From the IMG/VR virus record IMGVR_UViG_3300029305_006500: a stretch of DNA of 64,000 bases, one strand, 5' to 3'. This stretch comes from a virus. Lineage: Duplodnaviria; Caudoviricetes. Below the pieces are notes generated by a model. The model saw only the letters and a list, made by a program, of their open reading frames with translations. It searched no databases and had not been told where the DNA came from. Shown here in pieces: positions 5,837-46,576 of this stretch. Every line of letters begins with the position of its first letter. Positions within the stretch are counted from its first letter, which is position 1. The translations under genes and the position numbers were made by a program.

Positions 5837-5842
5837 ACTAAA

Positions 5843-5851: not shown

Positions 5852-5927
5852 ATATATATAGAAAACTTTGTGACGGAAGTCACGCGATAAAATTAAAATA
5901 TATTTTTTATTAAGGAGAAAATTAAAA

Positions 5928-21137: not shown

Positions 21138-21188
21138 CAATTATATAGGATTTATTGTATAATATAAATAGGAAGAGGATAATTTTTA

Positions 21189-29953: not shown

Positions 29954-29963
29954 TGCTAAATTA
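29954..29963 (+). promoter_or_regulatory. Putative late promoter TGCTAAATTA
   Basis: Motif heads the cargo-gene block. Confidence 0.7.
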
Positions 29964-30002
29964 ATTGATTTGAATAAGAAAATTTATTAAAGGAGATTTA
30001 TA

Positions 30003-31073
30003 ATGGCAAGATTACCTGCAAGAGAGAAAGAAACGGCCAAAGGTTTCTTACTTGATTTGTTTTATTGCGGCGGTCTCATTGATGCTAATGACCTAGCACT
30101 TGGATCTAAAGTATCAGATCGTCGTGGTGGCATGGATGCTCACGGCAAAGAAGCACAAACTATTTGTAATGAAATTCAATATAGATTATTTGACTTTTTT
30201 GAAGTAGATAAAGCACTACAAGCTTTAGATGGCTGCAAGTTTATTGCAGACCCTAAATTGACAGGCCACTGGAAATACCGTGAAGGTTCAGTTAGACAAA
30301 TTTCTCGTACCCCAGATAAATTAGCTGCAATGATTGCAGATTTCTGTGCAGATAATAAAATTTATTGGGATGACATTAATACTAATAAAACTGTAAATGA
30401 GCTTGAACAGTATAAGCAGACCATGTTTGGTCAAGCACTTGTGAGAGAGGGTTGCTTTTTATCTCAAGCTTCTTCAACTAAGGCATCTAGTGCTTCTACA
30501 ACTGTTAGACAGCCTAGAACACCCAAAGCGTCAAATCAAGGCCCAATGAATAACTATAAGCAATCAGGTCCCCAGTCTGGAAATGCTCGTGGACTAATTG
30601 GTCAGCCTGGAGCTAAAATTACTGCTTCAAATATACGAGTTTATGCTGTAGTAGGTGATAATACTAAATCTACAAAAGGAGCTTCCGCTTATGCGTTAGT
30701 TAACCCACTAGAAGCAAAGGGTAAGAGCGCCAATGATGCAAATGTAAACCGTGTATTTGTTAATAGCTCACATGGTTATACAGACTGTGTATGTTACTTT
30801 GAAACACCTCAAGAAGCAGATGCTTTCTTACAAAAATGCCAAGGAATTTGTCCTTCATTCGTAGCTAACTTAAGAGTTGCAAAGAAAAGCGCAGATAGAA
30901 ATGGATACTTCAGAGTTGAAACTGATTTTGGCCCAGCTTTAATTTTAGCACAAAAGCTTAATGAGCTTATGGAGCAAAAAGCTGAGGAAGTTGCTGCAAA
31001 AAAAGCTAGCGAACCAAAATACCAGATTACTGATATAGAAGCTTTTGATGAAGCTTTACGTAAATATGAATAA
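30003..31073 (+). CDS. Hypothetical late protein
   Basis: 356 aa; KLNE motif near C-terminus. Confidence 0.65.
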   Translation: MARLPAREKETAKGFLLDLFYCGGLIDANDLALGSKVSDRRGGMDAHGKEAQTICNEIQYRLFDFFEVDKALQALDGCKFIADPKLTGHWKYREGSVRQISRTPDKLAAMIADFCADNKIYWDDINTNKTVNELEQYKQTMFGQALVREGCFLSQASSTKASSASTTVRQPRTPKASNQGPMNNYKQSGPQSGNARGLIGQPGAKITASNIRVYAVVGDNTKSTKGASAYALVNPLEAKGKSANDANVNRVFVNSSHGYTDCVCYFETPQEADAFLQKCQGICPSFVANLRVAKKSADRNGYFRVETDFGPALILAQKLNELMEQKAEEVAAKKASEPKYQITDIEAFDEALRKYE

Positions 31074-31092
31074 TGGAGGAAAATAACAAATT

Positions 31093-32487
31093 ATGAAAAT
31101 CAATAAGATTTTAACAGAAGATGTTGAAAAAGTAGATGATATGGTTATTGACCCTAATGAAAATGCTTCTGAAATTGCTGATGATGTTCAGGATCAGGTG
31201 GAGGCAGGGTCAGAAGGAGCTGAGACTGTCTCAGATTCAAAAGCTGATGCTATTGCACAAGAAATTGTACAGGCAGGGGATGACATTGGAGCTGGATCTG
31301 CTTTTGTAGTTCCGAAGTCAATTAATACTGATAATAAAATCACTCGTCTTCTTGAAAAAGCTTTTAAGCTTTCTATTCGTAATAGAAAAATGGGTATGAA
31401 GGAGAACTGCAACATTCTTCTTATTGGTTTACCTGGATCCGCAAAAACTGCTTCTGTTTATGACTGGGCAGCAGCTAAAGGGAACGATGTAAACTTAGTA
31501 TATGTAAATGCTAAAAATAATGACCTTGAATCTTATATTAATGGTTATACTGTAAGAGATGATGATGATAGATCTTATGTTCGTCAGGCGTACTCTAGAA
31601 ACCTTAGTGATCTCGAAAATAAAAATTCGGTTCTTTTCCTTGATGAGTATAACCGTCAAGTAAAGCCACATATTAGAGCATCTCTTTTAACTCTAATTAA
31701 TGAACATTACATTGTGGGCAATGATAAAGACGAAAACGGAAAGAGCACTGGTAAACACTACTTCCCTAATTTGCTTTTCACTATCGCATGTATTAACCCT
31801 GCGGTTCCTACTGATAAAGGAGCAGCACCTCTTAATGATGCAGAGCTCTCTCGTTTTGCAGCTATCCTAGATAATTTGGATTCAGACCCAGCTTCTGCTG
31901 CAGATTACTTAAATAAGAGATTTGACTTGCTTATTGCTGGCTTAAATCCTAAAGATGCTGAATATGCAGAATTTTTAGAAATTTATTTAAGAATTCAAGA
32001 TCTTGGTTTATTTATTGTACAACATGAAGACTTCTCTTATGATACTAAGGCAGATTTAGATGACCTTAGTATGGAGCAGAAAAAAATGCTTAACCAGAGA
32101 TCTTTGGGCGAGATTCTAGTACATTCTGGCGGTGACGTAAATGACTTCAAAGATTGGATAGAAATGTTCTCCCACTTCCTTCAGAAAGATAAAGATATGC
32201 TTCTTGGTATTGCAGACGAATATATAGTACCAAGTTTTGAAGAACTCTGTCGTAAAAAAGGTATTGATCCTACAAATATTTCTAATGCAGGTAATGCAAT
32301 TACAGATGCTGCAAAAGCAAAAGCTGCACAGGAAATTCTTGGAAAAGAAGCAGGAGATACTGGTGCAGAGGATATCGAGGATGATGAAGACTTCTTCTCA
32401 ACCGCTCCCAATGGGCCTACAGGTGCAAAAGTAAAATCAGCTGTTGAAGTAGTAGACGCAATTAAGAAAGCTGCTGCAAATTGGTAA
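31093..32487 (+). CDS. MoxR-type AAA+ ATPase with putative capsid-targeting leader
   Basis: GLPGSAKT, LFLDEYNR, CINP, LNDAELSRF; N-terminus MKINKILTE. Confidence 0.85.
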   Translation: MKINKILTEDVEKVDDMVIDPNENASEIADDVQDQVEAGSEGAETVSDSKADAIAQEIVQAGDDIGAGSAFVVPKSINTDNKITRLLEKAFKLSIRNRKMGMKENCNILLIGLPGSAKTASVYDWAAAKGNDVNLVYVNAKNNDLESYINGYTVRDDDDRSYVRQAYSRNLSDLENKNSVLFLDEYNRQVKPHIRASLLTLINEHYIVGNDKDENGKSTGKHYFPNLLFTIACINPAVPTDKGAAPLNDAELSRFAAILDNLDSDPASAADYLNKRFDLLIAGLNPKDAEYAEFLEIYLRIQDLGLFIVQHEDFSYDTKADLDDLSMEQKKMLNQRSLGEILVHSGGDVNDFKDWIEMFSHFLQKDKDMLLGIADEYIVPSFEELCRKKGIDPTNISNAGNAITDAAKAKAAQEILGKEAGDTGAEDIEDDEDFFSTAPNGPTGAKVKSAVEVVDAIKKAAANW

Positions 32488-32502
32488 TTTAGGAGGTGCT
32501 TT

Positions 32503-33594
32503 ATGCAAACACAATACCTAAATGAAGCTCGTAGATGGATGAGTGCGAAAGAGCGCAGTTTAAAAAAATTTTTAGAAAAACAACTACGTGATGATGGCCA
32601 TGGCCATCATCACGCTAAATATGCAGAGCGTTTGATGGACTTTGATATAAATATCATTCCCTTAGACCCTAATAATCCAGATAATATTGTAACTGCTTCT
32701 ATTTCTTTTGAAACAGGAGTAATTAATATTGGAGAAGGATTAATCAATAACCCTGCTACCGCTTATCAGCTTAGTACGGTTCTTCGCCACGAGCTTGCTC
32801 ATAATCTTATGATGCATCAAATTCGTATGATGAATTATCTTGGGGATGATGGCTGGAAAATCTGGGGTAGAAGTCCTAGCTTACATAATATTTTAAATAT
32901 AGTTATGGATGATGAAATTTCAAACAAACGTTACAATGACTATGATAAAAATATTATGAGAAAGCTTATAATTAATGGCCAAATAATTACTTGTTTGGTT
33001 ACAGAAGACCACAGAGCAGACTGGATAGATCTTTCTTTAGAAGAAATGTATGAGCGTATTACTGCAGAACTTAATGATATTCATACCAGACTTGCTAATC
33101 AAATACAGTTAAAACGACATCCAAAAGATGATTTTATTACGGGAGACCTTTTAAAAACCATGCCTTATCGTGAAACTTTTGGCGGGTCCATGATTCCTGG
33201 TAATTTGGATGACTTTGTAGCTAATGGTTGTAAAATTAATACGCCAACTGGAAAAATGGAACTAGATGATGTTTTTAAACAGATTGTTACTAGTATTCAT
33301 AAAGGCTTTTTAGCAACGCCTCCCACTCCAGAAATGATAGAAAAATTATTAACTGAAATCTCAGAATCAAAGCCTACAGAAGCTTTTAATTTTGTGCATC
33401 CGCAAACAGCGGAGGTTTTAGTAAAATTATACTCACCTGAAGAAAAAGTTATTGCAGTAGAAACCCTTAAAAAGTATAGATCTGATTTTTCTAAGTGGTA
33501 TAATAGAGTAATGTTAGTATTATTGCGTTCAGGATATACTGATAAGCAAATTCAAAAAATATTCAATAGAATTAATGGTAAAGGAGAAGACTAA
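32503..33594 (+). CDS. HExxH metallopeptidase-like protein (DUF2201-N type)
   Basis: VLRHELAHNLMMHQIR...NIVMDDEISN. Confidence 0.7.
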   Translation: MQTQYLNEARRWMSAKERSLKKFLEKQLRDDGHGHHHAKYAERLMDFDINIIPLDPNNPDNIVTASISFETGVINIGEGLINNPATAYQLSTVLRHELAHNLMMHQIRMMNYLGDDGWKIWGRSPSLHNILNIVMDDEISNKRYNDYDKNIMRKLIINGQIITCLVTEDHRADWIDLSLEEMYERITAELNDIHTRLANQIQLKRHPKDDFITGDLLKTMPYRETFGGSMIPGNLDDFVANGCKINTPTGKMELDDVFKQIVTSIHKGFLATPPTPEMIEKLLTEISESKPTEAFNFVHPQTAEVLVKLYSPEEKVIAVETLKKYRSDFSKWYNRVMLVLLRSGYTDKQIQKIFNRINGKGED

Positions 33595-34547
33595 TGCAGA
33601 AACGAAATACCATTAATATTTCTGAAGCGGCCTCTGATTTCTTTAAGCAAAATCTAGACCCCGCAAAGCTTTCTGACCGTATTAATCAAGTAAAACGTAC
33701 TAGAGACCTTGCTAGGGAAGCTGCAGATTCTGCTGAAGCAAACGGAAATGCAGAGGCAGCCGCGAAACTTAGAGCTGATGCAGATATGTTGCAACAACTT
33801 TTAGATGATACGGCCGAGGGAGGTAATATTACTTCTAATAATGATGAGGCTAGCAGCACTAACGGCTCAAATGATGCAGAGTCGGAGGGCAGTTCTTCCG
33901 ACCGTGATCTAGATTCTAATGACTCAGATCAAACTGGAAATTCTTCGGGTAATAATAAATCCTCAGATGATGAAGACGATGAAGAGGACGATGAAGAAGA
34001 TTTTGATGATGAAGCGGATGAGGACTTTGAGGACGATGATGAAGGCTTAGATTCTGATGACTCCGAAGAGGACGAAGATGGCTCAGAAACATCAGGTGAA
34101 GACGATTCAGATGAAGACTCGGATGAAGACTCGGATAATGAAACAGATGCTTCTGGAAATTCCGAAGATGAAGATGAAGACAATGATGAAGACGAGGATG
34201 AAAAGGAAACTTCTGGAACAAGTACCGGTGATGGAGAAGATTCTGGATCTGAAGATGAGAAAGAAGCTGAGGATGAAGAGGAAGATGATAGCTATGGTCG
34301 TCCAAAAGTAAAAGATAAGAAAATTCTACAAAATCCTTTCAAAAGCGCCCAAATTCCTACTAAATTACCTAAAGATCTACAAGCGTCTCTCGATGCAGGT
34401 GAACTAGAAATTGAATCAGAAGTTGATGCAATAGTTCGTATCTTGTCAAAGTTAACTGGGGAAGCCCGTAGGGGTGCAGAACAAGCTTTAAGAGATGCTT
34501 TTAAAAATAAAAATAGCTGGGGAGAAGAAATCGATGACAGTAATTAA
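33594..34547 (+). CDS. Highly acidic low-complexity protein
   Basis: ~130-aa D/E/S tract; N-terminus MQKRNTINISE. Confidence 0.7.
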   Translation: MQKRNTINISEAASDFFKQNLDPAKLSDRINQVKRTRDLAREAADSAEANGNAEAAAKLRADADMLQQLLDDTAEGGNITSNNDEASSTNGSNDAESEGSSSDRDLDSNDSDQTGNSSGNNKSSDDEDDEEDDEEDFDDEADEDFEDDDEGLDSDDSEEDEDGSETSGEDDSDEDSDEDSDNETDASGNSEDEDEDNDEDEDEKETSGTSTGDGEDSGSEDEKEAEDEEEDDSYGRPKVKDKKILQNPFKSAQIPTKLPKDLQASLDAGELEIESEVDAIVRILSKLTGEARRGAEQALRDAFKNKNSWGEEIDDSN

Positions 34548-35406
34548 AGTAAAAGGTCAAAGACTAACAGAAGCTGTTAAACGTCTGGACACCATGAGTG
34601 ATTCTGAATTCGATAGTATTCTGGACGGTGTTTTAGATCGAATAGACTCAGTTAAAAAAGTAAAATATAGTACAGATTTAGATAGTCGTGTCCAAAAAAT
34701 TCAAAATGATATGAATGACCCCTTTAAAAATAAAGACCTTGAGCAAGAAGATAGGGCTAATAGAGGAGTAGACAGACGAATTGCTAAAACACGTGAGCGT
34801 GAAAAAGAAAAATATGCTCCTAAAACATTTAAAGGCTTAGCAGAACTTACTCAAATCATTTATCGTTCTATTGCAGACCAGGTAGATGCTGTAGAGGATG
34901 ATGAAGAAACTTATGCTGTTCTTAATAAGAGAGCTGATGAGGACCCAAGTGTCGTAAAACGCGGAGAACGTATTGATGATGTCTTTGATACTGTTCCTAC
35001 AGTAGATATTTATTTCGATCAGTCTGGGTCTTGGGGAGAATCAGATCTTGAAATGGGTGCTAAAGCTATTAGTCATCTACGATATTTTGAGGAGCGCGGC
35101 GAGATTATATTAAATATTTTCTATTTTGCTGACAATGTAACATCTATAAAAGATGATGTTAGAGGTGCAACCGGTGCTTGGCCAAGGATTTTAGAGAAAA
35201 TAAAAGAAACTGGTGCAAATAACGTTTTAGTTATGTCTGATGATGACATAGAAAGCCAGAGTAATCCACAAAAGCCTGTTTGGGTAGACGGCTGCGTCTG
35301 GTTCTTATGGCGTAATGGATGCACTTCACCGAGGTGTGTAAAGGAACTCATTGGAAAACGTAATAGAAATAGTATGAATCAATTTTCATTTTCACCTGAG
35401 GAGTAA
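34534..35406 (+). CDS. VWA-domain protein
   Basis: MIDAS DQSGS, GAT, VMSDD; follows MoxR and peptidase. Confidence 0.8.
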   Translation: MTVIKVKGQRLTEAVKRLDTMSDSEFDSILDGVLDRIDSVKKVKYSTDLDSRVQKIQNDMNDPFKNKDLEQEDRANRGVDRRIAKTREREKEKYAPKTFKGLAELTQIIYRSIADQVDAVEDDEETYAVLNKRADEDPSVVKRGERIDDVFDTVPTVDIYFDQSGSWGESDLEMGAKAISHLRYFEERGEIILNIFYFADNVTSIKDDVRGATGAWPRILEKIKETGANNVLVMSDDDIESQSNPQKPVWVDGCVWFLWRNGCTSPRCVKELIGKRNRNSMNQFSFSPEE

Positions 35407-35412
35407 GAACAT

Positions 35413-35985
35413 ATGAGAATTTTAAAAGAAGATACTAATATAAAAGAAGCTATTCCGGTATCCTTCCTCACAGATATGATGAGTAAGGGCTGGGAAGAAG
35501 TTGGTTACTTAAAAGAGGCAAGTGCCGCAATAAAAGAAACATATACTGATACTGCAAAAGTCGAAGATCTTATGCAAGATCTTATGGATGCCTATTTAGT
35601 TTTTATTGGTCAAATTGAGCTATATCTTAATAATGAAAAAGATATAGCACCAGAACTTGAAGCAGAGGTAGACGAAAAAACTGAGACAAAAGCTACTCTA
35701 GAAGAGCCTACTGAAGAAAATGTACCAAAACCAGAGCTACCAGAGGCAGAATTGGAAATTAAGCCTATGGCTGAACCTACTCAAGGACATATTGCTAGTG
35801 AAGGTGATTTTGAAGAGCTTGCTATCTCGGACGCTGAGTTAGCAAATAAAAAACTTGAGGAACCTTTTGATTTCTTTGTAGACTTTGATGAGCCAGATAT
35901 GTCAGAGCCAAAATTAACTGATGATGATCTCTATGGGCACGAAGACTCTGAGCTTGAGCAAAATAAATTAAAAGCTCAACTATAA
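35413..35985 (+). CDS. Acidic hypothetical head-internal protein
   Basis: MRILKE leader; acidic C-terminal half. Confidence 0.6.
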   Translation: MRILKEDTNIKEAIPVSFLTDMMSKGWEEVGYLKEASAAIKETYTDTAKVEDLMQDLMDAYLVFIGQIELYLNNEKDIAPELEAEVDEKTETKATLEEPTEENVPKPELPEAELEIKPMAEPTQGHIASEGDFEELAISDAELANKKLEEPFDFFVDFDEPDMSEPKLTDDDLYGHEDSELEQNKLKAQL

Positions 35986-36001
35986 ATTAAGACCTAAATT
36001 C

Positions 36002-36039
36002 AAAGCAGAGCAATGCTTTTGGCAAAGCTCTGCTTTTTA
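36002..36039 (+). terminator. Intrinsic terminator
   Basis: AAAGCAGAGC/GCTCTGCTTT plus T tract. Confidence 0.75.
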
Positions 36040-36043
36040 TATT

Positions 36044-36053
36044 TGCTAAATTA
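36044..36053 (+). promoter_or_regulatory. Putative late promoter TGCTAAATTA
   Basis: Motif directly after the terminator. Confidence 0.7.
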
Positions 36054-36056
36054 TAC

Positions 36057-36124
36057 GATGTTTGGAGACATTGCGGGCTTATCCTTTCACCGTATGTCTC
36101 TAGGCATCCATCTCTGAAAAGGAG
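36057..36124 (+). promoter_or_regulatory. Structured 5' UTR with anti-SD-like loop
   Basis: Stem 36057-36071/36094-36108; loop TCCTTTCA complementary to TGAAAAGGA RBS region. Confidence 0.5.
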
Positions 36125-36132
36125 TATCAAGT

Positions 36133-37224
36133 ATGAAAAAATTTATTATGAATGACAACTGGGAAATGGAAGCTTATGATGATCATTCCGATTTATTTCT
36201 ACTAGTTGTCGAGCGCAGTCTTCCAGATTGTAGTTATGTTTATAAGTATGATACCGATCCAGACGCGCTTAGACCTGAATATACTCAGCTTACAAATCAA
36301 TATAAAGAGACAGATGTAGACGGGCCTCTTAATATTTGTATTGTAAGAGTACCTAATACAGAACAAGTAAACTCTCAAATCTGTTGTGCAGATAGTGAAA
36401 ATGTAGGTACTACCGAAGAGGCTATTGAAGCAATTAATGCTGTGTTAAATAGAGCAGATTGTGAATTTTTAGAAAGTTGGCACAAAGAGCCTTTAACCGA
36501 GAAGAGACACAAAAGACGTACTAAACAACCCTATGATTCTATTACTTATACTACGGGTTATCCAGAGCTAAATATGAATTTCTTTAATAATAAATTCGGC
36601 ACTAATGATCTAGGAGTTATGGACTCAGCAAGTAACGAAAGCTGTGGTGAGGGAGATGTAAGTTGTAGTGAGAGTCTTACAGAAGCAAAACGTGAAATTA
36701 AACGTTATTATGTAAGACCTTTTAATATCTTTGCAGCCAATAAAGCTGAAATCTTAAAAATTCTTGCTGATAATAAAGAATCTAACTGCTCAGTATATTC
36801 TCTAAAGGCATTAGATGACCATGATGATGTACATCTCCTTCAGCCTAGCGATATTATTTATTATTATGATGAGGGAGTCCTCTATGATAAAAATCATGTT
36901 CAAGTTCTAGACTATGATCTACGAGCAAAAGCTGAAGAAGAACGTAAAAAATTTGCTACCATAGATGATAATTCTGATTCATTTAAGGCTGAATATGAAG
37001 ATCGTATGACTAGTGCTACCGATCTTGATGAGTATAATGAGTCTTTAAATGAAAATTTGAGAGAAGATATAAATACTTGCATTATTTGCGGAGAGGAATT
37101 TAAAGATTATGGTCACAATCCTTGGCCTGTTGCGGAAGAAGGCCGTTGCTGTTCTGCTTGTAATGCAAAGTTTGTAATTCCAGCCAGAATCGAGGCAAGT
37201 AAAAAAGCTTATGAAGAGGATTAA
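36133..37224 (+). CDS. Multi-segment hypothetical protein with C-terminal Zn finger
   Basis: CIICG...GHNPWP...CCSACN; several LTE/LNE sites. Confidence 0.65.
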   Translation: MKKFIMNDNWEMEAYDDHSDLFLLVVERSLPDCSYVYKYDTDPDALRPEYTQLTNQYKETDVDGPLNICIVRVPNTEQVNSQICCADSENVGTTEEAIEAINAVLNRADCEFLESWHKEPLTEKRHKRRTKQPYDSITYTTGYPELNMNFFNNKFGTNDLGVMDSASNESCGEGDVSCSESLTEAKREIKRYYVRPFNIFAANKAEILKILADNKESNCSVYSLKALDDHDDVHLLQPSDIIYYYDEGVLYDKNHVQVLDYDLRAKAEEERKKFATIDDNSDSFKAEYEDRMTSATDLDEYNESLNENLREDINTCIICGEEFKDYGHNPWPVAEEGRCCSACNAKFVIPARIEASKKAYEED

Positions 37225-38350
37225 ACTTAAAGAAGGTGCACCTAGTAGTGAGCTTTTCTTTAATTGGCCCGCTACGGTACAGGATAATAGACTAAATCAT
37301 CCGTCTGAAATAGAAGCTTTTTTAGAAGAGAATCTTACCGAAAATGAGGAATTATTAGGCTATTATACTAATATGCTTACAACAATGCCAGAGCATAAAG
37401 AATTTTTCGACTATGAGCTTAGAAGCCGTAATTTAGATATTTATATAGCTCCTGATAGTCATGAGTTAGATTATTACTCGAATCCTCAAAAAATTACAAG
37501 AGATTTAGTAGTAGAAGTAGCGAAAGCAAAAGATTTTGAGAAATTATTTAGAACGTTACGCTCTTTTTACGGTGTAGCTTTAAATGCACGACTTTGTGCA
37601 GCATTATTGGTCGCAATTTGCCTAGATAGAAAAGACTTAATAACAGCTATTAAAGGCCACATCAACAAAATAAATACTTTTAAAGCTCAAGCTAAAGCTT
37701 TTATTGAAAAAAATGCCACAGAAGCTATGGCCGAGAGAGTTATAGAGCTATATACCGAGTATGTAAATCTCTTACAAGCAAGAAAACAGCGTAAGCAAGC
37801 TAATGAGAGTAATCAATCTGGTATTAAAACAATCTCTTTATTAGAAGCTAGCACTTTAACTGCTTATGAAAAAATGGATCTTTTTAATAGAGGTCAACGC
37901 AGAGAAAATCTAAAAGCATGCTCTACCTTAAAATTAACTACTTATTATAAACTTTGCTTAAATAATAAATTTAAGAGAGCCGAGCGCTTAATCGCTACAG
38001 AACTTTTAAATAGAGGTGGTGGCGCTTATGTTAGGCCAGACCCAGTTGATATAGATGAAACCCAATTTACACCTTATGAGGCGCAGTTTGTTTTACAGAA
38101 TAAGAATTCTGTTGATACTATCATAGAGGGGGCGGCGCAATTCCCGTTTACTGGGCTAACCAGCTCAGATACTTTAACTATATATTTGATTTTTGCTATA
38201 GCTTTAGGAGAGACTACTGTAGTTAATGAAATCAAAAAACAAATGCGATTATATAACACCTATTATGAGATTATGCCTGAAATTCTAAATGAAATTTTAG
38301 CTAGGCCTGGGGTAACGGATAAGGTAACTGATATTATTAATAATCTTTAA
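37211..38350 (+). CDS. Protein with two copies of an unknown ~165-aa domain
   Basis: C-terminal half aligns by eye with 41900 ORF (EAST, GQRR.N, AQFV, RPGV). Confidence 0.7.
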   Translation: MKRIKLKEGAPSSELFFNWPATVQDNRLNHPSEIEAFLEENLTENEELLGYYTNMLTTMPEHKEFFDYELRSRNLDIYIAPDSHELDYYSNPQKITRDLVVEVAKAKDFEKLFRTLRSFYGVALNARLCAALLVAICLDRKDLITAIKGHINKINTFKAQAKAFIEKNATEAMAERVIELYTEYVNLLQARKQRKQANESNQSGIKTISLLEASTLTAYEKMDLFNRGQRRENLKACSTLKLTTYYKLCLNNKFKRAERLIATELLNRGGGAYVRPDPVDIDETQFTPYEAQFVLQNKNSVDTIIEGAAQFPFTGLTSSDTLTIYLIFAIALGETTVVNEIKKQMRLYNTYYEIMPEILNEILARPGVTDKVTDIINNL

Positions 38351-38362
38351 GGAGGCTGCCAT

Positions 38363-38881
38363 ATGAAAAAAAGAATAATAATAGAATCTGTGGCAGAGGA
38401 CAGAAAAAAATTCGTAAAGGCTTGTACTGCTACAGAACTAACTAAGCAGTATAGACAAGCATTAAATATTGGAGATTTTGATACATTAAAAATTCTTGAT
38501 GCTGAGTTATATGATCGTGGCTATACTTTTCATATCGCGCCTTTAGATACTATTCTACGACCCTCGGCTGAACTTTTTGGCGATGAGCTAGTTTGCTTAG
38601 TTATTGATGCAAAAGGCGATACAGATAAAATTTTTGAAAGAGCTGAAGACATACATAATAAAACAGGAACTCTGCCAGCTTCAACTGTATTACTTTGTTA
38701 TACTATTGCAACTGTTATTGGAGAGACAACACTAGCTCAAAAGCTGGCTAATTTTATGAAGCGCTGCCATACCTATGACCAGTTAATCAAAGGTTATTTA
38801 CAGCTTTGTAGTACGACAGCAGATATTTACAAAAGACTCGCAGAATTAACAGAGACAGCGGAGGCCTATAGATCATGGTAA
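38363..38881 (+). CDS. Single-copy member of the same unknown domain family
   Basis: KAC, AEL.DRG, IGETT, M...TY shared motifs. Confidence 0.65.
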   Translation: MKKRIIIESVAEDRKKFVKACTATELTKQYRQALNIGDFDTLKILDAELYDRGYTFHIAPLDTILRPSAELFGDELVCLVIDAKGDTDKIFERAEDIHNKTGTLPASTVLLCYTIATVIGETTLAQKLANFMKRCHTYDQLIKGYLQLCSTTADIYKRLAELTETAEAYRSW

Positions 38882-40404
38882 AAATAAATAAGAATTTTCA
38901 CCCTCGTAGTGTTGAGCTAGTAAAAGCATTTGATGAGGGGCGAATCAAGTTAGAGCTAGACGAATATCCCTTCGGCTCCTTAATAATGTATTATGAAATT
39001 GCGTTAGCTAATAATTTCAAAACTGCTGCAAGCAAGTTTGAAAAGGAGTTTGAGATTCAAGGCAAGCCAGAATGTATAGTGCCACGTCAGCTGTTCACTC
39101 AATTTAATCCTTCTATGATTAGCTTACCTTTTGCAGAAGAAGTTTGGAAAGCATCTTTACGATATTGTACTGACCTTGGTGCTGCTTGTTATAACTATTT
39201 TCCACCTAGTTATGGTTATATGATTGGCTACTTATTAGCAGTCAGTTTTGGCAAGCAAGATGTAGCTGCTTTTCTTAAAAATTTAATAAAATCTTATCCA
39301 CCAGTAGCTGATAGCATGCCTCATTTTTTAGAACTTGCTCAACAGCCTGCAATAGTTGAACGTATAGCTGAACTTCATAAAATATTAGAATCCCGAACTA
39401 ATTCTAGTATTTCGGAAGAACTAGAGCCAGTTGAAGAAGATATAGAAAAGCATGAGGAGTTAAATCCACTACTATTTGAAAATAACAAGCTTAAAAAAGA
39501 AGTAGCAGAGCGTGCTTTAGCTGTGGCAGATGAACTAGTAAAAATGTTGGATGAGAATAATGTTCAATTTAAATTAAAAGACTTAATTCTTACTGGTTCT
39601 AATGCTAGCTATAACTATACAAAAGATAGTGATATTGACCTTCATTTAGTTGCAGACCTTTCTGAGTTTGAAGACCCCGATGGCTTATATCCAATTATCT
39701 ATCAAGCTTATAAGAGTGCTTTTAATAAAAAATATGAAATAGATTTTTATGGAATTCCTGTTGAAGTTTATATAGAATGTGAAGATACTCCATTAGTAAG
39801 TAATGGTATCTACTCTATATTAAATGATGAATGGATAAAAGAACCAGAACAAGTTAGTATCCCAGATGTAGATATGGACGCTATTAAAAAAGCAGTAGAA
39901 CCTTGGGAAGAACGTTATAATAAACTAGTTAATGATATTGAATCTGGTAATCTCGAGGATGAGACTAAGATAGATACCTTTGTAAATGATTTATATGAGA
40001 TTAGAGCAGAAGGACTTAAAGAAGGTGAATATGCTGAGGGTAATCTTATCTTTAAAGAAATGCGTAATAAAGGTTATTTAGATAAACTTAAAGACTTACG
40101 TGATAAAGTAATTGGAGATAAATTAACTCTTGAAAGCTTAACTGAAAGGCTTTCTAACAGAGATATTGATCATTATCGAACCGAGATTCAACGGCTTACT
40201 TTTGAGCAACCTATTATACAACCAAATGGTATATTTGAGATTTATAATGTAAAAGAAAAAGATACTCAAGGTATTCTTGATATATTACGCAGACAAGATT
40301 TTATTGATTTTGTACAAGTATCTGCTTCTAGGTATGACTTTAGTACTTTTGCCCGAAGTGGCATTCCGACTCAATTATATAGGATATACGGACAAATAAA
40401 ATAA
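38875..40404 (+). CDS. Unknown domain fused to a Pol-beta-family nucleotidyltransferase
   Basis: LTGSNASYNYTKDSDIDLH (GS...DxD), PVEVY. Confidence 0.8.
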   Translation: MVKINKNFHPRSVELVKAFDEGRIKLELDEYPFGSLIMYYEIALANNFKTAASKFEKEFEIQGKPECIVPRQLFTQFNPSMISLPFAEEVWKASLRYCTDLGAACYNYFPPSYGYMIGYLLAVSFGKQDVAAFLKNLIKSYPPVADSMPHFLELAQQPAIVERIAELHKILESRTNSSISEELEPVEEDIEKHEELNPLLFENNKLKKEVAERALAVADELVKMLDENNVQFKLKDLILTGSNASYNYTKDSDIDLHLVADLSEFEDPDGLYPIIYQAYKSAFNKKYEIDFYGIPVEVYIECEDTPLVSNGIYSILNDEWIKEPEQVSIPDVDMDAIKKAVEPWEERYNKLVNDIESGNLEDETKIDTFVNDLYEIRAEGLKEGEYAEGNLIFKEMRNKGYLDKLKDLRDKVIGDKLTLESLTERLSNRDIDHYRTEIQRLTFEQPIIQPNGIFEIYNVKEKDTQGILDILRRQDFIDFVQVSASRYDFSTFARSGIPTQLYRIYGQIK

Positions 40405-40431
40405 GGGGAATAAAAATCCCCTTATTTTTTT
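40398..40431 (+). terminator. Intrinsic terminator
   Basis: AAATAAGGGGA/TCCCCTTATTT plus T tract. Confidence 0.8.
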
Positions 40432-40458
40432 ATTTTCTTGTATAAAGATTCTTTAATT

Positions 40459-40468
40459 TGCTAAATTA
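40459..40468 (+). promoter_or_regulatory. Putative late promoter TGCTAAATTA
   Basis: Motif match. Confidence 0.7.
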
Positions 40469-40505
40469 TACGATAAGCAGCTTTTACAGAAAGGAAATAA
40501 GTATA

Positions 40506-41903
40506 ATGCAAGAAACAATGAAAACTTTGTATTTTCTAAGTAAAGAGCCTGTTGAGCTTTTAATACCTAAAGAAAGTAATGCAGATAATGCAGCTCCTTT
40601 TGTAAGGCTTAGCGGTTCGATTCCTGGTTATTTATATATGCTTCAAGAAAACGTAAGTAATGAACAATTTTATGTTTATTCTATTACTACTGATGAGTAT
40701 TTTATTCCTACGCTAGCAGAAGCTCCTAATAAGCATTTAACTGAAGAATTAAGAGTAAACTTTGCTTTTACTCCTGATTATCTATATACTATTAAAGTTA
40801 AAGAACAAAGTACTCCAATTATGGAAAACTTTAATGGACAGATGTCATTACTTCCACAGTGGGATATAGAAATTATAGAAGATAAAAAGCTTACTGAGGA
40901 CACACGCGTTGTTTTAGTAAATAAGTCTAAAGGTGCTGGTCCTTATAAAAATCAAATGAGAGGAAAAAATCGTTTTGAGCGTAAAAAGCACTCTCAAATA
41001 GCTAAGACTGTAAAGCAATATAATAAAATAGATATGAATAAAGTCTTTAAGGAAGATATTCTTGAAGTTTCTATTCCAGTTATAGGTGAAACTGATAGCT
41101 ATACTGTTAACATTCGTTTAGAAGGTGTAGTAAAAGAAATAGCTAAAAATATTAAGAATAATCAAAACAAACTTGAGTACAAAACTATTGTGCAATCTTT
41201 AACCAAAATTTTTAACTCTGGCAATGTATGGGTAAAATGCTCGTGTCCAGACTATAAATATCGTTTTGCTCATTGGAATATTGTAAATCGGGTTTCGGTA
41301 GATGATACCTCTAAAGACCCTGGACCTGGAAAAGGTATTGCAAATCCAAATGACGATAAAGGTAGAGGCTGTAAGCATGTACTACTATGCTTGGCTAATG
41401 GTGACTGGGTAATGAAAGTATCCAGTGTAATAAACAATTATATTCATTACGCCGAAGAAAAACTTCAAAAGCCTTTCTTAAAACTTATATTTCCTAAGCT
41501 CTATGGAGTACCTTATGATGAAGCTGTAGAAAATAATTTACTACCTGATGATTTCGAGCTAGACAGCTCTGAAAGTATTATAGATGCTATTAATGATTGG
41601 GGTAAAAATAGAGGCAAGATGAAAAAAGGCTCTAATATTAATCCAGTATATGCTAATAAGCTTTCTGCAGAACAGAAAAAGAAATCAGCTAATGAGGTTA
41701 AGCCTGAGGAGCCTAAGAATAAGTCTAAGAGCCCAGAAAAGCAAAAAGAAGCTACAACGCCTATGGAAAAAGAAAAGGCCTCAGAAGCTGAAAAAACTAA
41801 GCCTGAGCAAACTTCTAAACCTGTAGAAGATAAAGCAAATGTAACAGGCAAAACACCTAACAAACCAGACAATGAGGATAAAACAGATAAGGAAAAGAAA
41901 TGA
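40506..41903 (+). CDS. SWIM zinc-finger protein with charged tail
   Basis: VKCSCPDY...GCKH; start chosen by AAAGGA RBS. Confidence 0.75.
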   Translation: MQETMKTLYFLSKEPVELLIPKESNADNAAPFVRLSGSIPGYLYMLQENVSNEQFYVYSITTDEYFIPTLAEAPNKHLTEELRVNFAFTPDYLYTIKVKEQSTPIMENFNGQMSLLPQWDIEIIEDKKLTEDTRVVLVNKSKGAGPYKNQMRGKNRFERKKHSQIAKTVKQYNKIDMNKVFKEDILEVSIPVIGETDSYTVNIRLEGVVKEIAKNIKNNQNKLEYKTIVQSLTKIFNSGNVWVKCSCPDYKYRFAHWNIVNRVSVDDTSKDPGPGKGIANPNDDKGRGCKHVLLCLANGDWVMKVSSVINNYIHYAEEKLQKPFLKLIFPKLYGVPYDEAVENNLLPDDFELDSSESIIDAINDWGKNRGKMKKGSNINPVYANKLSAEQKKKSANEVKPEEPKNKSKSPEKQKEATTPMEKEKASEAEKTKPEQTSKPVEDKANVTGKTPNKPDNEDKTDKEKK

Positions 41904-42457
41904 AAAAAACTATAATTACTGAAGCATCTACAATGAGTCAGCTTGATAAAATGTACCAATGTGAGCACGGTCAGCGTCGGCAAAACTGGCGCTCCTGTAG
42001 TCTTGATAAGCTCAAAGAGAACTATAGAATCTGCTTATATCAAAACTTTACGAAGGCCGGTGGAGAGGCAGAAGCAGAAATTATTCACCGTGAAATGTGG
42101 GGGCTACTAGCACCAAGACCTTTTAATATCGATAATTTTTCTACAAATCATGCTCAATTTGTTTGGGATAATAGAAAAACTTATCATAGGATAATGCAAG
42201 CTGCTTCTGAATGTCCTATAACTTGTGGAGACACTTTAAGACCTTCTGAGTATCTTACTAGAGCTTTTATATTAGCTTTGGCTATGGATAATCCTGAACT
42301 AGATGCTTTTATAAATGCAGTAAAAGCAACAATGCGAGCACAGGAAACTTATTCAGGCTTAATGCCAAAATATTTAAACGATATTGCTAATCGGCCAGGA
42401 GTTGCAGACGCCGTTGCTGTTGCAGTTGCTGGGGTGGATTACCTAAAAACTGTATAA
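41900..42457 (+). CDS. Member of the unknown repeated domain family
   Basis: MKKTIITE|AST; paralogous to the C-terminal half of the 37211 ORF. Confidence 0.7.
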   Translation: MKKTIITEASTMSQLDKMYQCEHGQRRQNWRSCSLDKLKENYRICLYQNFTKAGGEAEAEIIHREMWGLLAPRPFNIDNFSTNHAQFVWDNRKTYHRIMQAASECPITCGDTLRPSEYLTRAFILALAMDNPELDAFINAVKATMRAQETYSGLMPKYLNDIANRPGVADAVAVAVAGVDYLKTV

Positions 42458-42518
42458 AAATCACAAATATTGTATTATATAAATATAAGGCATTTATGAA
42501 AGGAGAAATTTCAAGTAG

Positions 42519-44597
42519 ATGATTTCTAATGAAAATCCATTATTAGATATTAGTGCCTTAGATGGTTTAAATGAAGAGGAACGAAAATTAGCTCTTGAGA
42601 TCTTAAAGGAATTTTCACAAGAAGGAGTTTCTACTCTTCTAGATACTCTTCAGTATGGAGACTTTGAAGAAATTCCAGTTGATATAGATACCTTCTTAGA
42701 TGATGATAGATACTTAGGTAAGGGCTTATGGGAAGTAGATGTCTTATCTGGCACTCGACGGTGTACTATATTTCCATATTGGCGAGAGACTTTAAAAAAG
42801 CTATTCCCAGATAATTTAACAACAGCCTACAATACACTAATTTTAACCGGTGCTATCGGTATTGGTAAATCTTTTGTAGGTGTTATTGCTATGTTATATT
42901 TATTATACAGGATGCTTTGTCTAAAAGACCCCTATGGCTATTTTGGAATGCAGCCAATAGATAAGATAACTTTTTCCATGTTAAATATAACATTAGATGC
43001 CGCACAAGGTGTTGCTTGGGACAAAGCTCAGCAAATGATACAAAGCTCTTCTTGGTTTATGGATCATGGAGCAGTTAATGCCAGTCGTTCTAATCCTATG
43101 TGGCAACCCGGAAAACATATTGAGTTAATTTTTGGTTCCCAAAATAGACACGTCGTTGGTCGTGCTTTATTTTGTAATCTAACTGATGAAGTTAACTTTG
43201 GTATAGGTAGTGACGTAGAAAAAAAGAAAGCAAAGCAGAAAAAATTAATTGCTCAAATTGATGCACGTATGCGTTCACGTTTCTTACGTGGAACATACTT
43301 ACCCACTCTTAACATAATTATATCGTCAAAAGATACTGAACAAGCTTTCCTTGATTCTTACATAAATATCAAGAAACAAAATGAAAGTAAAACTACACTT
43401 ATTATTGATGAGGCACAGTGGGTAGTAGACCCAAGAAAAGGATCACCTAATGATCCAGGTGCTTTCTATGTTGCAGTAGGTAATAAATTTCTTGCTCATG
43501 AGCTCTTACCTCCTAGACTACCAGAAGAAGAGGTAGATAAATATCGTGAAAAGGGTTATAGTTTACTAAAAATCCCACCTGGCTATCGAGAAGATTTTGA
43601 AACAAACTTAGATCAAGCTTTAATGGATATTGCAGGTATTTCTACTTCTAGTAACACTAAATATATATCAGGTGTTAGACTTAACCAAGCTAAGGTTGAT
43701 ACATATATAAATCCGTTTATGCGTGATATAATAGAAGTTGGTAATAGTCCAGATGATCATTTGCAGTATGCTAACTTTTTTGATTTATCAAAAATTGATC
43801 CAAAAGATTTATCTAAGCCCTTATTTATTCATTTAGATATGTCGCTTTCAGGAGATAAAACTGGTATTGCTGGTACCTGGATCACTGGAAAATATCCTAC
43901 TCAGGTTGGTGAAAATCAAGATTCTTCAAGAGAGCTTCAATATAAACTTGCTTTCTCAGTATCAGTAAAGGCTCCAAAAGGTTTTCAAGTTAGTTTTGAA
44001 AAAAATAGAAACTTTATTAGATGGCTACGTGATAGAGGCTTTGCCATAAAAGGTGTATCAAGTGATACATATCAAAGCGCCCAAATACAACAAGATTTAA
44101 AGAGTGATGGTTTTAAAACTGAAATAATTTCAGTGGATAGAATTGATGGTACTAGCAGAATGTGTTTACCCTATCACTATTTAAAATCTGCAATTTATGA
44201 GCGTAGAGTTAAAATTTATAAAAAATGTGACTTACTTACAGAGGAGCTAGTAGGTCTTGAACGTCTTTCTGATGGGCATATCGACCATACAGCTGACGGT
44301 ATAAACTCAAAAGACCAAGCAGACGCTTTTTGTGGTTCGCTTTACTTAGCTTCTAAATTTGCAGATGAATATGCGTATAGTTATGGAGAAAATCTCGATG
44401 CAGCACTAGACGTAAGTTTAGAACAAACAGATTCTATGTTAAAATCACAGATGATTGCCGATTTTGAAAACGAATTAACAAAACTTTATTTTGATACTTG
44501 TAAAGAAATGCAGTATGCAGATGCTTTAATATCAAAGCAGCAAAGAGAAGAATATGAACGCTATAGAGATATAGCGGACGGTATAATAATCTTATAA
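42519..44597 (+). CDS. Terminase large subunit
   Basis: TGAIGIGKS Walker A, TDE Walker B, HLDMS..GD nuclease, KDQADA. Confidence 0.88.
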   Translation: MISNENPLLDISALDGLNEEERKLALEILKEFSQEGVSTLLDTLQYGDFEEIPVDIDTFLDDDRYLGKGLWEVDVLSGTRRCTIFPYWRETLKKLFPDNLTTAYNTLILTGAIGIGKSFVGVIAMLYLLYRMLCLKDPYGYFGMQPIDKITFSMLNITLDAAQGVAWDKAQQMIQSSSWFMDHGAVNASRSNPMWQPGKHIELIFGSQNRHVVGRALFCNLTDEVNFGIGSDVEKKKAKQKKLIAQIDARMRSRFLRGTYLPTLNIIISSKDTEQAFLDSYINIKKQNESKTTLIIDEAQWVVDPRKGSPNDPGAFYVAVGNKFLAHELLPPRLPEEEVDKYREKGYSLLKIPPGYREDFETNLDQALMDIAGISTSSNTKYISGVRLNQAKVDTYINPFMRDIIEVGNSPDDHLQYANFFDLSKIDPKDLSKPLFIHLDMSLSGDKTGIAGTWITGKYPTQVGENQDSSRELQYKLAFSVSVKAPKGFQVSFEKNRNFIRWLRDRGFAIKGVSSDTYQSAQIQQDLKSDGFKTEIISVDRIDGTSRMCLPYHYLKSAIYERRVKIYKKCDLLTEELVGLERLSDGHIDHTADGINSKDQADAFCGSLYLASKFADEYAYSYGENLDAALDVSLEQTDSMLKSQMIADFENELTKLYFDTCKEMQYADALISKQQREEYERYRDIADGIIIL

Positions 44598-44614: not shown

Positions 44615-46576
44615 ATGGCAAATGAAGAGACCAAAGATATATTAAAGACTGCAACAAACAGTCCCCTGATTGGTCATCAGGCAAAACCAACAGTGTTGGA
44701 TTCCACTACCAAATTAGATATTGATACTACTAAGTCTTTAGTAGATAATATCATAGAGGCAGGCCTAAGTAATACGCTGGATGCATCCGCACTAGAAAAT
44801 TTTACTACAATTTCAAATGCGCGAGACCAGATTTATCAATTAATTGATACTATGTGTCAAGATTCAGCTGTTTCCTCTATTGTACGTACATATTCCGAAG
44901 ACGTATGTGAAACTGGAGACAATGGACATATTGTATGGTGTGAGTCATCAGACCCTAATACAGCTAAGTTCGTTAATTATTTACTTAATGTTATGAACGT
45001 AGATAAGAAAATTTTTGGCTGGACCTATGCTCTTATAAAGTATGGCGATGTTTATTTAAGACTTTATAGAGAATCCGACTATAAAGACCCTATCTTTAAA
45101 AAGAAAGCTGAAAGAAGTAAGCTAAATGAGTCTGTAGATGACAAAGCTTTAGATGAAGCTGTAAAACTTAGCGTACATACTGCTGGCGATAAATATAGTT
45201 ACTATGTTGAAATGATAGCTGACCCCGGTACGATGTTTGAACTTACTAAATTTGGTCAAACTTATGGTTATATTGAGGTGCCTAATCAAGCAAATGCTAT
45301 TGATTCTGGAAGCTATACCGGTGCTACGACTGGTCTAATAGGTGGCGCATCCGCTAATCCATTCAACTTCAAATATGGTACTAAGGATGTAAATATTTAT
45401 CAAGCAGATGATTTTGTACATGCCTGTCTTGAGGACAATATTTCAAGATTTCCTGAAACTGTCGACCTTTTCTATGAAACACAGAACGCAGAAATAGAAG
45501 GTACTACTGCAGAAACTTATACTTATACAGTAAAACGTGGTAAATCTTTACTTTATGATGCTTACAAAATATGGCGTGAAAAGGCTTTATTAGAATCAGC
45601 CGTGCTCCTTAGCCGTATTACTAGATCAGGTATTGTAAGAAAAGTCGGTGTTGAAGTTGGAGATATGAGCAAGGAACAAGTACAAGCTACCTTACGAAGA
45701 GTTAAAGAGCTCTTTGAACAGAAGGCAGCTTATAATACAGATAAAGCTTTTTCAGAATACAATAATCCAGGTGCAGTAGAAAACTTTATTTATTATGCTA
45801 CTCATAACGGCCAAGGTGCGATTACTGTAGAATCTGTAGGTGGAGATTTTGATCCTAAACAGCTCACAGATTTGGACTGGTGGAACAATAAATTTTATTC
45901 TTCTTTCGGTATTCCAAAGCAATATTTTGGCTGGACTGATGATGGGGCGGGCTTCAATGGTGGATCTGCTCTAACTGTTATTTCTAGTGTTTATTCTAAA
46001 GGTGTAAAAAGAGTACAAAACTGTATCCTTCAAATGATTACTGATGCTATTAATCTATTTTTATTGGATAGAGGCTGTAAAGCATTTTTAAATAATTTTA
46101 CATTAAAGATGCGTGCTCCATTGACACAAGAAGAAATTAGTTATCGTGAAAGCTTTACTAATAAAGTATCAGCTTTAAGTAACGTTAATAGCTTATTTAC
46201 TGATGTAGAAAATAAAGCTAGACGCCTACAAATTCTTAAATCGTTGTTAACAACTATTGAAATCGGTGGAGATGTACTTGAAGCTGTTCAAAAAGAAATT
46301 GAAGCAGCTGAAGAAGAGGCTGCTAAGGCAGCTGAAGAAGCAGAGCTTACAGGTGAAGATAGTTTAGAATCAGATGACCAGACTTTAACAGATGAAATTG
46401 ATACTACAGAGGAAGAAGAGCTTCCAGCTATGCCAGACTCTGAGCTAGCTGCTGAGGGCTTTACCTCACATGGTGGAGCGGAAACTCTAGTGGAAGACCA
46501 ATTTATTTTTGAAAGTGATGACCTGCCTACACCAGAAGAAGCAGATAATGAAATAGATTTTACAGAGAATAATTAA
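44615..46576 (+). CDS. Portal protein (T4 gp20-like)
   Basis: KYGDVYL, LESAVLLSRITRS, VEVGDM, FGIPK; follows TerL. Confidence 0.85.
   Translation: MANEETKDILKTATNSPLIGHQAKPTVLDSTTKLDIDTTKSLVDNIIEAGLSNTLDASALENFTTISNARDQIYQLIDTMCQDSAVSSIVRTYSEDVCETGDNGHIVWCESSDPNTAKFVNYLLNVMNVDKKIFGWTYALIKYGDVYLRLYRESDYKDPIFKKKAERSKLNESVDDKALDEAVKLSVHTAGDKYSYYVEMIADPGTMFELTKFGQTYGYIEVPNQANAIDSGSYTGATTGLIGGASANPFNFKYGTKDVNIYQADDFVHACLEDNISRFPETVDLFYETQNAEIEGTTAETYTYTVKRGKSLLYDAYKIWREKALLESAVLLSRITRSGIVRKVGVEVGDMSKEQVQATLRRVKELFEQKAAYNTDKAFSEYNNPGAVENFIYYATHNGQGAITVESVGGDFDPKQLTDLDWWNNKFYSSFGIPKQYFGWTDDGAGFNGGSALTVISSVYSKGVKRVQNCILQMITDAINLFLLDRGCKAFLNNFTLKMRAPLTQEEISYRESFTNKVSALSNVNSLFTDVENKARRLQILKSLLTTIEIGGDVLEAVQKEIEAAEEEAAKAAEEAELTGEDSLESDDQTLTDEIDTTEEEELPAMPDSELAAEGFTSHGGAETLVEDQFIFESDDLPTPEEADNEIDFTENN

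Follow-up and report, generated by a model that had tools for sequence, protein, structure and literature searches.

Short [LI]-x-E leaders and linkers mark a late gene block of a jumbo phage as a candidate set of prohead-protease substrates

What is the function of a run of large, mostly unassigned late proteins encoded directly upstream of the terminase gene in an uncultured tailed phage, and are they carried into the head and trimmed there by the phage's own maturation protease? The question is raised by a 64-kb window (i.e., the whole stretch of 64,000 nucleotides that we analysed) of the IMG/VR virus record IMGVR_UViG_3300029305_006500, in which positions 30003-42457 hold a block of 12 open reading frames (ORFs, named here by their first position) on the plus strand, with starts supported by Shine-Dalgarno-based calls. 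The window and its record (67,382 bp) are fragments of a larger genome; one block protein recurs unchanged on a contig of 226,673 bp, and we therefore take the virus to be a jumbo phage. A reading of the window made from the sequence alone (henceforth the sequence-only reading) had proposed that most block proteins begin with a short basic leader ending in [LI]-x-E, as do the substrates of the phage T4 prohead protease gp21, and that the block is a packaged and injected toolkit, partly built as polyproteins. In T4, gp21 cuts after L/I-x-E and removes propeptides of 7-65 residues, the first ten residues of the internal protein IPIII suffice for head targeting, and an aspartate in the final position prevents cutting while leaving targeting intact (PMC9026906). 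We conclude that the block probably encodes proteins and polyproteins that are directed to the prohead and trimmed there by its protease; what we infer is that they are targeted, cut, kept in the head and ejected.

We counted a leader wherever [LI]xE ended at residue 5-16 of a protein. By this count 8 of the 12 block proteins have a leader, against 6 of 35 early genes and 3 of 17 genes from the terminase onwards (Fisher p=0.0026 for the block over the early genes, within the window), an enrichment over replication genes such as the sequence-only reading had anticipated. All eight leaders that it quoted exist in the sequence behind Shine-Dalgarno-supported starts; they are basic, 6-13 residues long and end in [LI]-x-E. 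When residues 2-40 of the 12 proteins were shuffled, 5000 trials averaged 1.9 leaders and peaked at 7, never reaching 8. The overall density of [LI]xE is equal inside and outside the block (1.6% vs 1.5%), so that only the position of the motif is unusual. We dropped a signal peptide or lipoprotein reading of the leaders, as they have neither a hydrophobic core nor a Cys.

The same pattern was found in more than 45 related phages, which were collected by a scan of IMG/VR (3 loci) and by a metagenome scan with the SWIM-like protein of the block (45 loci, on contigs of up to 230 kb). The window and L004 follow the standard code. In most of the relatives (L001, L003, L005-L037 and L042), by contrast, TGA encodes Trp: of about 220 in-frame TGA codons in their terminase, portal and block genes, 160 are aligned to a Trp of the window proteins. 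Gene calls with translation table 11 therefore fragment the late genes of these relatives, and re-calling gave fewer, larger proteins (600-1,180 residues) at the block position. Among re-called ORFs with good ribosome-binding sites, 47 of 83 block proteins had a leader, compared with 5 of 30 early proteins (p=1.2e-4); when a small or acidic residue was also required at P1' (i.e., directly after the Glu at P1), the counts were 37 of 83 and 2 of 30 (p=7e-5). Placing D, K or Q/N at P1, or reversing the motif, gave no enrichment in the relatives. A pooled N-terminal statistic on table-11 ORFs (E at residue <=20) was also tried and gave 39% vs 35% vs 28%; it did not discriminate, because TGA=Trp split the genes of most relatives and because four distant loci have upstream tail-fibre genes.

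Within single protein families the motif is kept while the leader sequence drifts. Specifically, among the 120 best homologues of the MoxR-type ATPase of the block (38-99% identity, 117 distinct N-termini), [LI]xE ends at residue 5-16 in 104 of the 117, mostly after a MKIxK start, with leaders such as MKINKILTE/D, MKINKLHE/N and MKIKKTKIIE/N (a slash marks the presumed cut); many have a second site a few residues on, and the 13 that lack the motif are mostly genes called too short or too long. Homologues of the peptidase-like protein begin with MKSSLRLTE/A, MHKLNNLRE/S or MKTIKE/A. In the family of ORF 35413, a hydrophobic-x-E lies 3-8 residues before the sequence LP[VI]SFLT in 12 of 12 distinct homologues, with L at P3 in 11 and V in one.

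A longer form of the motif, L[TND]E[AD], was counted 66 times in the block proteins compared with 10.4 in shuffles (maximum 23; 6.3-fold), 37 times in the downstream virion module compared with 9.0 (4.1-fold), and twice in early genes compared with 1.5, which is no enrichment. With a preceding serine, SL[TND]E[AD] was found 19 times where 0.5 were expected, and the extended motif with D or K at P1, or reversed, was not enriched. Depletion of [LI]xE within the mature cargo was looked for and not seen; the lowest ratio among the 12 block proteins is that of the acidic protein ORF 33594, in which the leader site is the sole [LI]xE compared with 4.1 expected.

The sequence-only reading had also noted internal sites at domain borders. 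We counted residues at such borders in distinct sequence contexts, using six-frame anchor searches that are independent of start calls. At the border of the SWIM-like domain (37 contexts), P1 is E in all 37, P3 is L in 36, P2 takes nine different residues, and P1' is D in 28 and A in 5; in a database set of homologues, P1 is Glu in 74 of 74 distinct contexts and P3 is L or I in 72 of the 74. The border of the KRYY domain of ORF 36133 (12 contexts) has E at P1 in 11 and L at P3 in 10, and that of the nucleotidyltransferase (22 contexts) has E at P1 in all 22, with M (8), L (7), V (3), I (3) or F (1) at P3. A junction test based on the starts of BLAST high-scoring segment pairs (163 of 489 vs 112 expected) was weak and redundant, and the anchor-based counts were used instead.

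The distance of these sites from the N-terminus varies with gene fusion. Of 118 database homologues of the SWIM-like domain, 74 have the site at 9-28 residues (mostly 13, the usual leader being MYIKxKKxxLLE/DTR) and 44 have it behind 47-211 residues, and in the metagenome loci it lies up to 991 residues in (L040). The VWA domain, encoded by a separate gene in the window, is the C-terminal part of a single protein of 618-692 residues in L020, L035 and L028, where the fused protein fills the slot that the window gives to two genes, acidic and VWA; in L020 and L035 an internal SLTE/A stands exactly at the place of the RLTE/A of the window's VWA leader, and L014 also aligns SLTE/A there. Homologues of ORF 36133 in L005, L014, L015 and L035 are 870-1,180 residues long and carry 200-700 residues of extra domains between matching GLTE/A and xLDE/AKR borders. 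Finally, the internal junction of ORF 37211, IKTISLLE/AS, is the codon-for-codon homologue of the start of a separate gene in L004 (L004:7608, MKTIKLHE/ASS), with ATT replacing ATG; leader and linker are therefore one element. The partial polyprotein build that had been proposed is well supported by such fusion and fission exactly at the sites. As a side observation, L023, L031, L003, L035 and L038 have a small domain (GTYDTKxEAExRLxQVxYFK; a weak DUF2188 match in L038) that precedes, in fused form, either the SWIM-like domain or the nucleotidyltransferase, depending on the phage.

A helical domain recurs within the window itself. It has four secure copies, namely ORF 41900, the C-terminal half of ORF 37211, ORF 38363 and the N-terminus of ORF 38875. 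The first two are paralogues (BLAST 1e-28), which confirms the reading's observation that two paralogous domains both start E/AST, one at an N-terminus and one internally. In profile comparisons with hhalign, ORF 38363 matched the family profile at 95% probability (E=1.7e-8), the N-terminus of ORF 38875 matched the helical family at 95%, and a fifth copy, the N-terminal half of ORF 37211, was marginal (52%). An AlphaFold model of ORF 41900 built from 13 family members is confident (predicted local distance difference test, pLDDT, 89.9) and has nine helices; its sole stretch below 50 pLDDT is residues 1-8, which are exactly the leader. Foldseek searches of this model against PDB and BFVD gave no E below 0.7, the best match in the VIA fold search had a Z of 5.8 over 54 residues, none of these relatives being clear, and ESM Atlas returned no usable match for the domain; such failed searches do not establish a new fold.

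Can the motif be tied to a particular enzyme? The window encodes, in a plus-strand gene at 47663-49537, a protein of 624 residues (phrog_207, 1.6e-27; Pfam Peptidase_S77, PF03420, 1e-6) in which an S77 gp21-type protease, spanning about the first 215 residues, is fused to an acidic, coiled-coil, scaffold-like part. Aligned to T4 gp21 (5JBL), it keeps ELGHP and GISSRGSG, so that the catalytic His and Ser of an S77 protease are both present in this presumed processing enzyme. Its published T4 counterpart cuts after [LI]-x-E, in agreement with both the leaders and the inter-domain sites (PMC9026906). The gp23-type major capsid protein (49573-50892, plus strand; Pfam Gp23, 2e-32) has two candidate sites, NLLE7/T and WMTE50/S (to nt 49722). 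Among seven distinct capsid N-termini, L[LM]E is present at residues 4-7 in all seven and [WFC][LM]TE/[SA] near residue 50 in six, the other (L029) reading SMRE/S. The cut of T4 gp23 at E65/A66 projects to about residue 44 of the window's capsid protein, and [LM]TE/[SA] lies within 7 residues of it, so that the capsid's likely maturation site shares the L-T-E/A/S form with the cargo junctions. The sequence-only reading had held that capsid and protease share the site: this stands for the capsid (NLLE7/T), whereas the protease's KVLE/A has Val at P3 and is a hydrophobic-x-E rather than an [LI]xE, the protease N-terminus in general being hydrophobic-x-E/A with V, I or M at P3.

The block also shares its expression signal with the head and tail genes. 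A late motif, GCTAAATTAWWHGA, has seven exact sites in the window (9 sites at <=1 mismatch vs 1.35 expected), and three of them head the block; the reading's statement that the block lies under the late motif holds at the level of a sequence pattern. The first, an exact GCTAAATTAATTGA at 29955-29968 on the plus strand, heads transcription unit 1 (30003-35985) and is kept at the equivalent place in L004 and L026. The second, at 36045-36058 (plus strand), heads unit 2 (36133-40404) and precedes the homologous gene in 9 of 10 relatives examined. The third, at 40460-40473 (plus strand), heads unit 3 (40506-42457); before the SWIM-like gene, the core GCTAAATTA was found in 10 of 10 relatives examined and the full 14-mer in 6. 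Because this motif occupies 40460-40473, the longer ORF 40458 (TTG start) is over-extended and the gene starts at the Shine-Dalgarno-supported ATG 40506. The remaining exact motifs precede ORF 47200, the protease-scaffold gene (47605), the head-tail adaptor gene (50980) and the sheath gene (54995), while early and middle genes have TTGTATAATAT-type promoters instead.

Taken together, these observations suggest the following scheme. The three late promoters would co-express the block with the head genes, and the leader grammar (M-K-hydrophobic-x-K ... [LI]-x-E) would act like the T4 targeting sequence and bring each product into the core of the scaffold. In the closed prohead, the gp21-type serine protease would cut after the Glu of [LI]-x-E: it would take off the capsid's 50-residue propeptide and the cargo leaders, and it would cut exposed L-x-E linkers between domains, such that fused and split genes would give identical mature pieces. 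These pieces (a MoxR ATPase, an HExxH peptidase, an acidic protein, a VWA protein, four to five helical domains, a nucleotidyltransferase, a SWIM-like protein and others) would stay in the head and probably exit with the DNA. We consider it plausible, rather than probable, that this lineage of gut and rumen jumbo phages has a packaged proteome of interchangeable domains on L-x-E linkers, in which fusion and splitting leave the mature products unchanged. Capsid targeting and gp21 processing are already textbook knowledge for T4; what is particular here is the interchangeability of linkers and leaders, the tagging of a whole MoxR-peptidase-VWA set, and a helical domain in four to five copies.

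Several points weigh against this scheme. Four of the 12 block ORFs (30003, 36133, 38875 and 40506) are without an N-terminal motif, and the leaders resemble the T4 targeting sequence in general pattern only. The counts in relatives include homologues and are not phylogenetically independent events, and a conserved L-x-E ahead of a domain could belong to the fold of that domain. [LI]xE shows no enrichment in the scaffold part of the protease protein (18 vs 15 by composition). In cyanophage S-CRM01 and Maribacter phage Molly, homologues of the nucleotidyltransferase are surrounded by non-structural genes and have no clear leader. The phage has no cultured close relative; the best capsid match to a cultured phage, Bacillus phage vB_BceM-HSE3, is 31% identical, and a search of titles and abstracts for virion proteomics of the cultured relatives HSE3, LIS04 and SP-15 found none. 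One of the four leaderless proteins may fit a T4 precedent: ORF 36133 begins with IMND/NW where its relatives have IINE/NW, and we speculate that the aspartate form is left uncut yet still targeted. The nucleotidyltransferase homologues also gave no support to a further idea, that of a general leader across cultured T4-like cyanophages and Maribacter phages, which was rejected.

Given that most T4 core proteins are cut and then leave the head (PMC9026906), the block proteins might instead be prohead-resident assembly factors that are targeted and trimmed in the same way, only to be degraded or expelled ahead of DNA packaging or in its course, rather than injected. The MoxR ATPase, the metallopeptidase and the acidic and VWA proteins would then form a chaperone machine, and the helical paralogues would be core or scaffold parts. 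The MoxR-peptidase-VWA trio is present in the block, and in group 2.2 jumbo phages a MoxR-vWA pair with a metallopeptidase fused to vWA has been proposed to act in virion assembly (PMC7824862); according to work cited there, a MoxR-vWA pair is needed for tail development in Acidianus two-tailed virus. This explanation leaves unaccounted for, however, the nucleotidyltransferase and the fusion, in L040, of the SWIM-like domain to an Alt-like ADP-ribosyltransferase, and capsid pores would be an improbable exit for large folded domains; we regard it as unlikely, while giving it more weight than any other alternative. A separate observation applies to injected cargo and assembly factors alike: a closed prohead offers an ATPase no obvious fuel.

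A second alternative is that there is no cleavage at all, the N-terminal pattern being the product of start codon bias (Lys- and Ile-rich A/T codons) and the start of a helix, and the L-x-E at domain borders being structural. AT-rich phages commonly have MK-rich starts, the leaders often contain [LI]xK, and the motif is seen in 17% of early genes. Yet early genes of the same genome, with equal codon usage, do not show the pattern, which is specific for Glu at P1 (D, K, Q and N are flat); moreover, the motif stands at the borders of at least 6 unrelated domains, both N-terminal and internal, and the leader is disordered in an otherwise confident model. We give this explanation a slim chance. 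Least likely of all is processing in the cytoplasm by the block's own HExxH metallopeptidase (ORF 32503), unrelated to the capsid: its gene does lie within the block, and polyvalent proteins often carry a predicted autoprocessing metallopeptidase (PMC5512222), but the site is the textbook gp21 motif, which is also found at the capsid's predicted maturation site and at the protease N-terminus and is enriched in the downstream virion module, and the peptidase is itself leadered.

How does a block of packaged and protease-trimmed proteins, as we prefer to read it, compare with known systems? The closest parallel is T4 with its internal proteins IPI, IPII, IPIII and Alt, which share with the window gp20/gp21/gp23-type head genes and short propeptides ending in L/I-x-E (PMC9026906), as well as a common tag on unrelated proteins and a capsid protein with the same site. 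The leaders here, predicted from sequence, are 6-13 residues long and dissimilar to the T4 MKTYQEFIAE; where T4 has three small basic proteins and Alt, the block comprises about 4,050 residues in 12 genes, with large enzymes and many internal sites. The giant phages SPN3US, phiKZ and 201phi2-1 are likewise jumbo phages with a T4-related prohead protease (gp245/gp175) that cuts many head proteins, among them ejection and inner-body proteins, after Glu (PMC10052503, PMC5694885), and they have paralogous internal-protein families whose propeptides may hold several sites. However, the SPN3US motif is A-x-E, whereas P3 here is L or I in the leaders, L in 36 of 37 SWIM borders and L or I in 72 of 74; giant-phage propeptides are also mostly 111-254 residues long, compared with mostly 6-13 here. 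No relationship to giant-phage cargo was found, Pfam and PHROGs having matched only the AAA and nucleotidyltransferase domains, with no direct comparison run.

A second set of parallels is provided by the polyvalent proteins of phages and conjugative elements (Iyer et al. 2017, PMC5512222), which combine two to fifteen effector-type domains in a single chain and resemble the relatives' shuffled, multi-domain proteins of 600-1,298 residues next to packaging genes. These large proteins lie directly upstream of the terminase, where the window mostly has one to three domains per gene. The 1,298-residue protein of L040 (L040:7061-10957) joins an ART-PolyVal ADP-ribosyltransferase domain (PF18760, 6e-14), via KLDE/ATR, to a C-terminal SWIM-like domain. 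ART-PolyVal is a further likeness, as is an associated zincin-like peptidase, and T4 Alt is a packaged and injected member of the same ADP-ribosyltransferase class (PMC5512222); the L040 fusion therefore places the SWIM-like family beside predicted packaged or injected polyvalent proteins and T4 Alt. (The L040 gene itself adjoins genes for tail-fibre-like and small membrane proteins.) By contrast, the domains of the window are mostly separate leadered genes, most of them lack an assignment, MuF was not detected, and the prohead-protease motif present here at junctions does not feature in PMC5512222. The MoxR and metallopeptidase-vWA set that Iyer et al. 2021 (PMC7824862) described for group 2.2 jumbo phages matches the block in its three components and its T4-like jumbo class; here, however, the peptidase, acidic and VWA proteins are three separate genes that each have an [LI]xE leader, the ATPase is leadered too, and no such signal is part of the published proposal. 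The N-terminal fusion of peptidase to vWA is absent from the window, and L020 and L035 fuse only the acidic part and the VWA domain. In phage P1, large enzymes of the Dar antirestriction system are loaded into the head after proteolytic processing, according to the work cited in PMC5512222 and PMC9024508; head-protein families, protease and signals differ, and no homology was detected.

If our reading is true, the internal proteins of an uncultured jumbo-phage lineage would be predictable from sequence alone. The idea that MoxR, peptidase and VWA proteins act in virion assembly (PMC7824862) would become concrete, every component having a head-protease tag, and a complete MoxR-peptidase-VWA machine would lie inside a capsid. 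T4-style capsid targeting would be joined with the polyvalent-protein model of injected multi-domain effectors, and the short leaders could act as packaging tags for foreign proteins in T4-type heads.

All block genes lie on the plus strand. In the first transcription unit, the 356-residue protein at 30003-31073 has no leader motif and no family match, and its homologues in L004 and L026 are likewise without the motif. It is followed by the MoxR-type AAA+ ATPase (31093-32487; Pfam AAA_5, PF07728, 1.6e-7, and AAA_3, PF07726, 4.7e-5), with the leader MKINKILTE/D at 31093-31119; one database source labels a homologue 'MoxR-like ATPase'. The HExxH metallopeptidase-like protein (32503-33594; leader MQTQYLNE/A, 32503-32526) has a marginal match to Pfam Peptidase_M48 (2.6e-4; 21.3 bits vs a cut-off of 20.3), and next to it lies the highly acidic, Asp/Glu-rich protein of 317 residues (33594-34547; leader MQKRNTINISE/A, 33594-33626). 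The VWA-like protein (34534-35406; leader MTVIKVKGQRLTE/A, 34534-34572) had no match in Pfam or in a PDB profile search. Its AlphaFold2 model has an overall pLDDT of 55, with residues 156-275 at 70-80 and residues 1-21 below 50; the matches of this model in the VIA fold search are almost all VWA domains (Z 7-8.8), and D162, S164 and S166 (DxSxS) are invariant. The unit ends with a 190-residue protein that has an LPVSFLTD core and an acidic tail (35413-35985; leader MRILKE/D...NIKE/A, 35413-35448).

The second unit opens with a three-part protein (36133-37224), whose internal sites are PLTE123/K (to nt 36501) and SLTE184/A (to nt 36684), followed by a two-domain protein (37211-38350) with the leader MKRIKLKE/G (37211-37234) and the junction IKTISLLE212/AST (to nt 37846). 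A single helical domain with the leader MKKRIIIE/S (38363-38386) is encoded at 38363-38881. The gene at 38875-40404 encodes a helical domain, a Pol-beta nucleotidyltransferase (Pfam NTP_transf_2, 4.3e-4; phrog_36119, 2e-32) and a C-terminal domain, with borders at PVEE188/D and SLTE424/R. In the third unit, the protein at 40506-41903 consists of an N-terminal domain and the SWIM-like domain, with the internal site KKLTE131/DTR (to nt 40898), and a single helical domain with the leader MKKTIITE/AST (41900-41923) is encoded at 41900-42457. The SWIM-like assignment is weak, coming from PF04434 in the relative L040 (E=0.0037) and from 10% of one Atlas cluster. The domain list of the sequence-only reading thus holds to different degrees: the AAA and nucleotidyltransferase domains are confirmed by Pfam, the peptidase is marginal, the VWA domain is seen by fold and DxSxS only, and SWIM is weak. 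PHROGs, Pfam and NCBIfam gave no match for 8 of the 12 block proteins, and a Pfam search of the window found no MuF, ART, DarB-type helicase or methylase, or MPTase-PolyVal, while it did find the weak M48-like HExxH and the nucleotidyltransferase.

Near-DNA searches with the block, and tblastn with the ATPase, found no match among 50,697 phage records. The lineage is large: homologues of one block protein number over 1,000, with contigs reaching 290 kb. For the SWIM-like domain the count of homologues exceeds 1,000, nearly all viral, and for the ATPase it is about 500. In the cultured phages HSE3, LIS04 and SP-15, homologues of the SWIM-like domain are encoded a few kb past the capsid gene, and in HSE3, the one genome inspected, the homologue is between neck and tail-sheath genes. 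The contig of the distant lineage L002, considered for covariation between protease and motif, has no capsid gene.

Directly downstream of the block lie the terminase gene (42519-44597) and the gene for the gp20-type portal (44615-46576; Pfam Portal_T4, 4e-32). The portal has, at residues ~165-185, a loop of variable length that holds L-[NDQ]-E once or twice in every relative and reads KLNE/S...ALDE/A in the window; this could be an internal protease site or only a structural feature. The tail sheath protein (55067-57136) ends in ...EVALTE/A, with the motif one residue from the C-terminus, which is probably chance. The TTGTATAATAT promoter is of the extended -10 type, distinct from the late motif, and precedes replication genes and the terminase, in the regions 5837-5927, 11797-11866, 14528-14579, 21138-21188 and 42458-42518.

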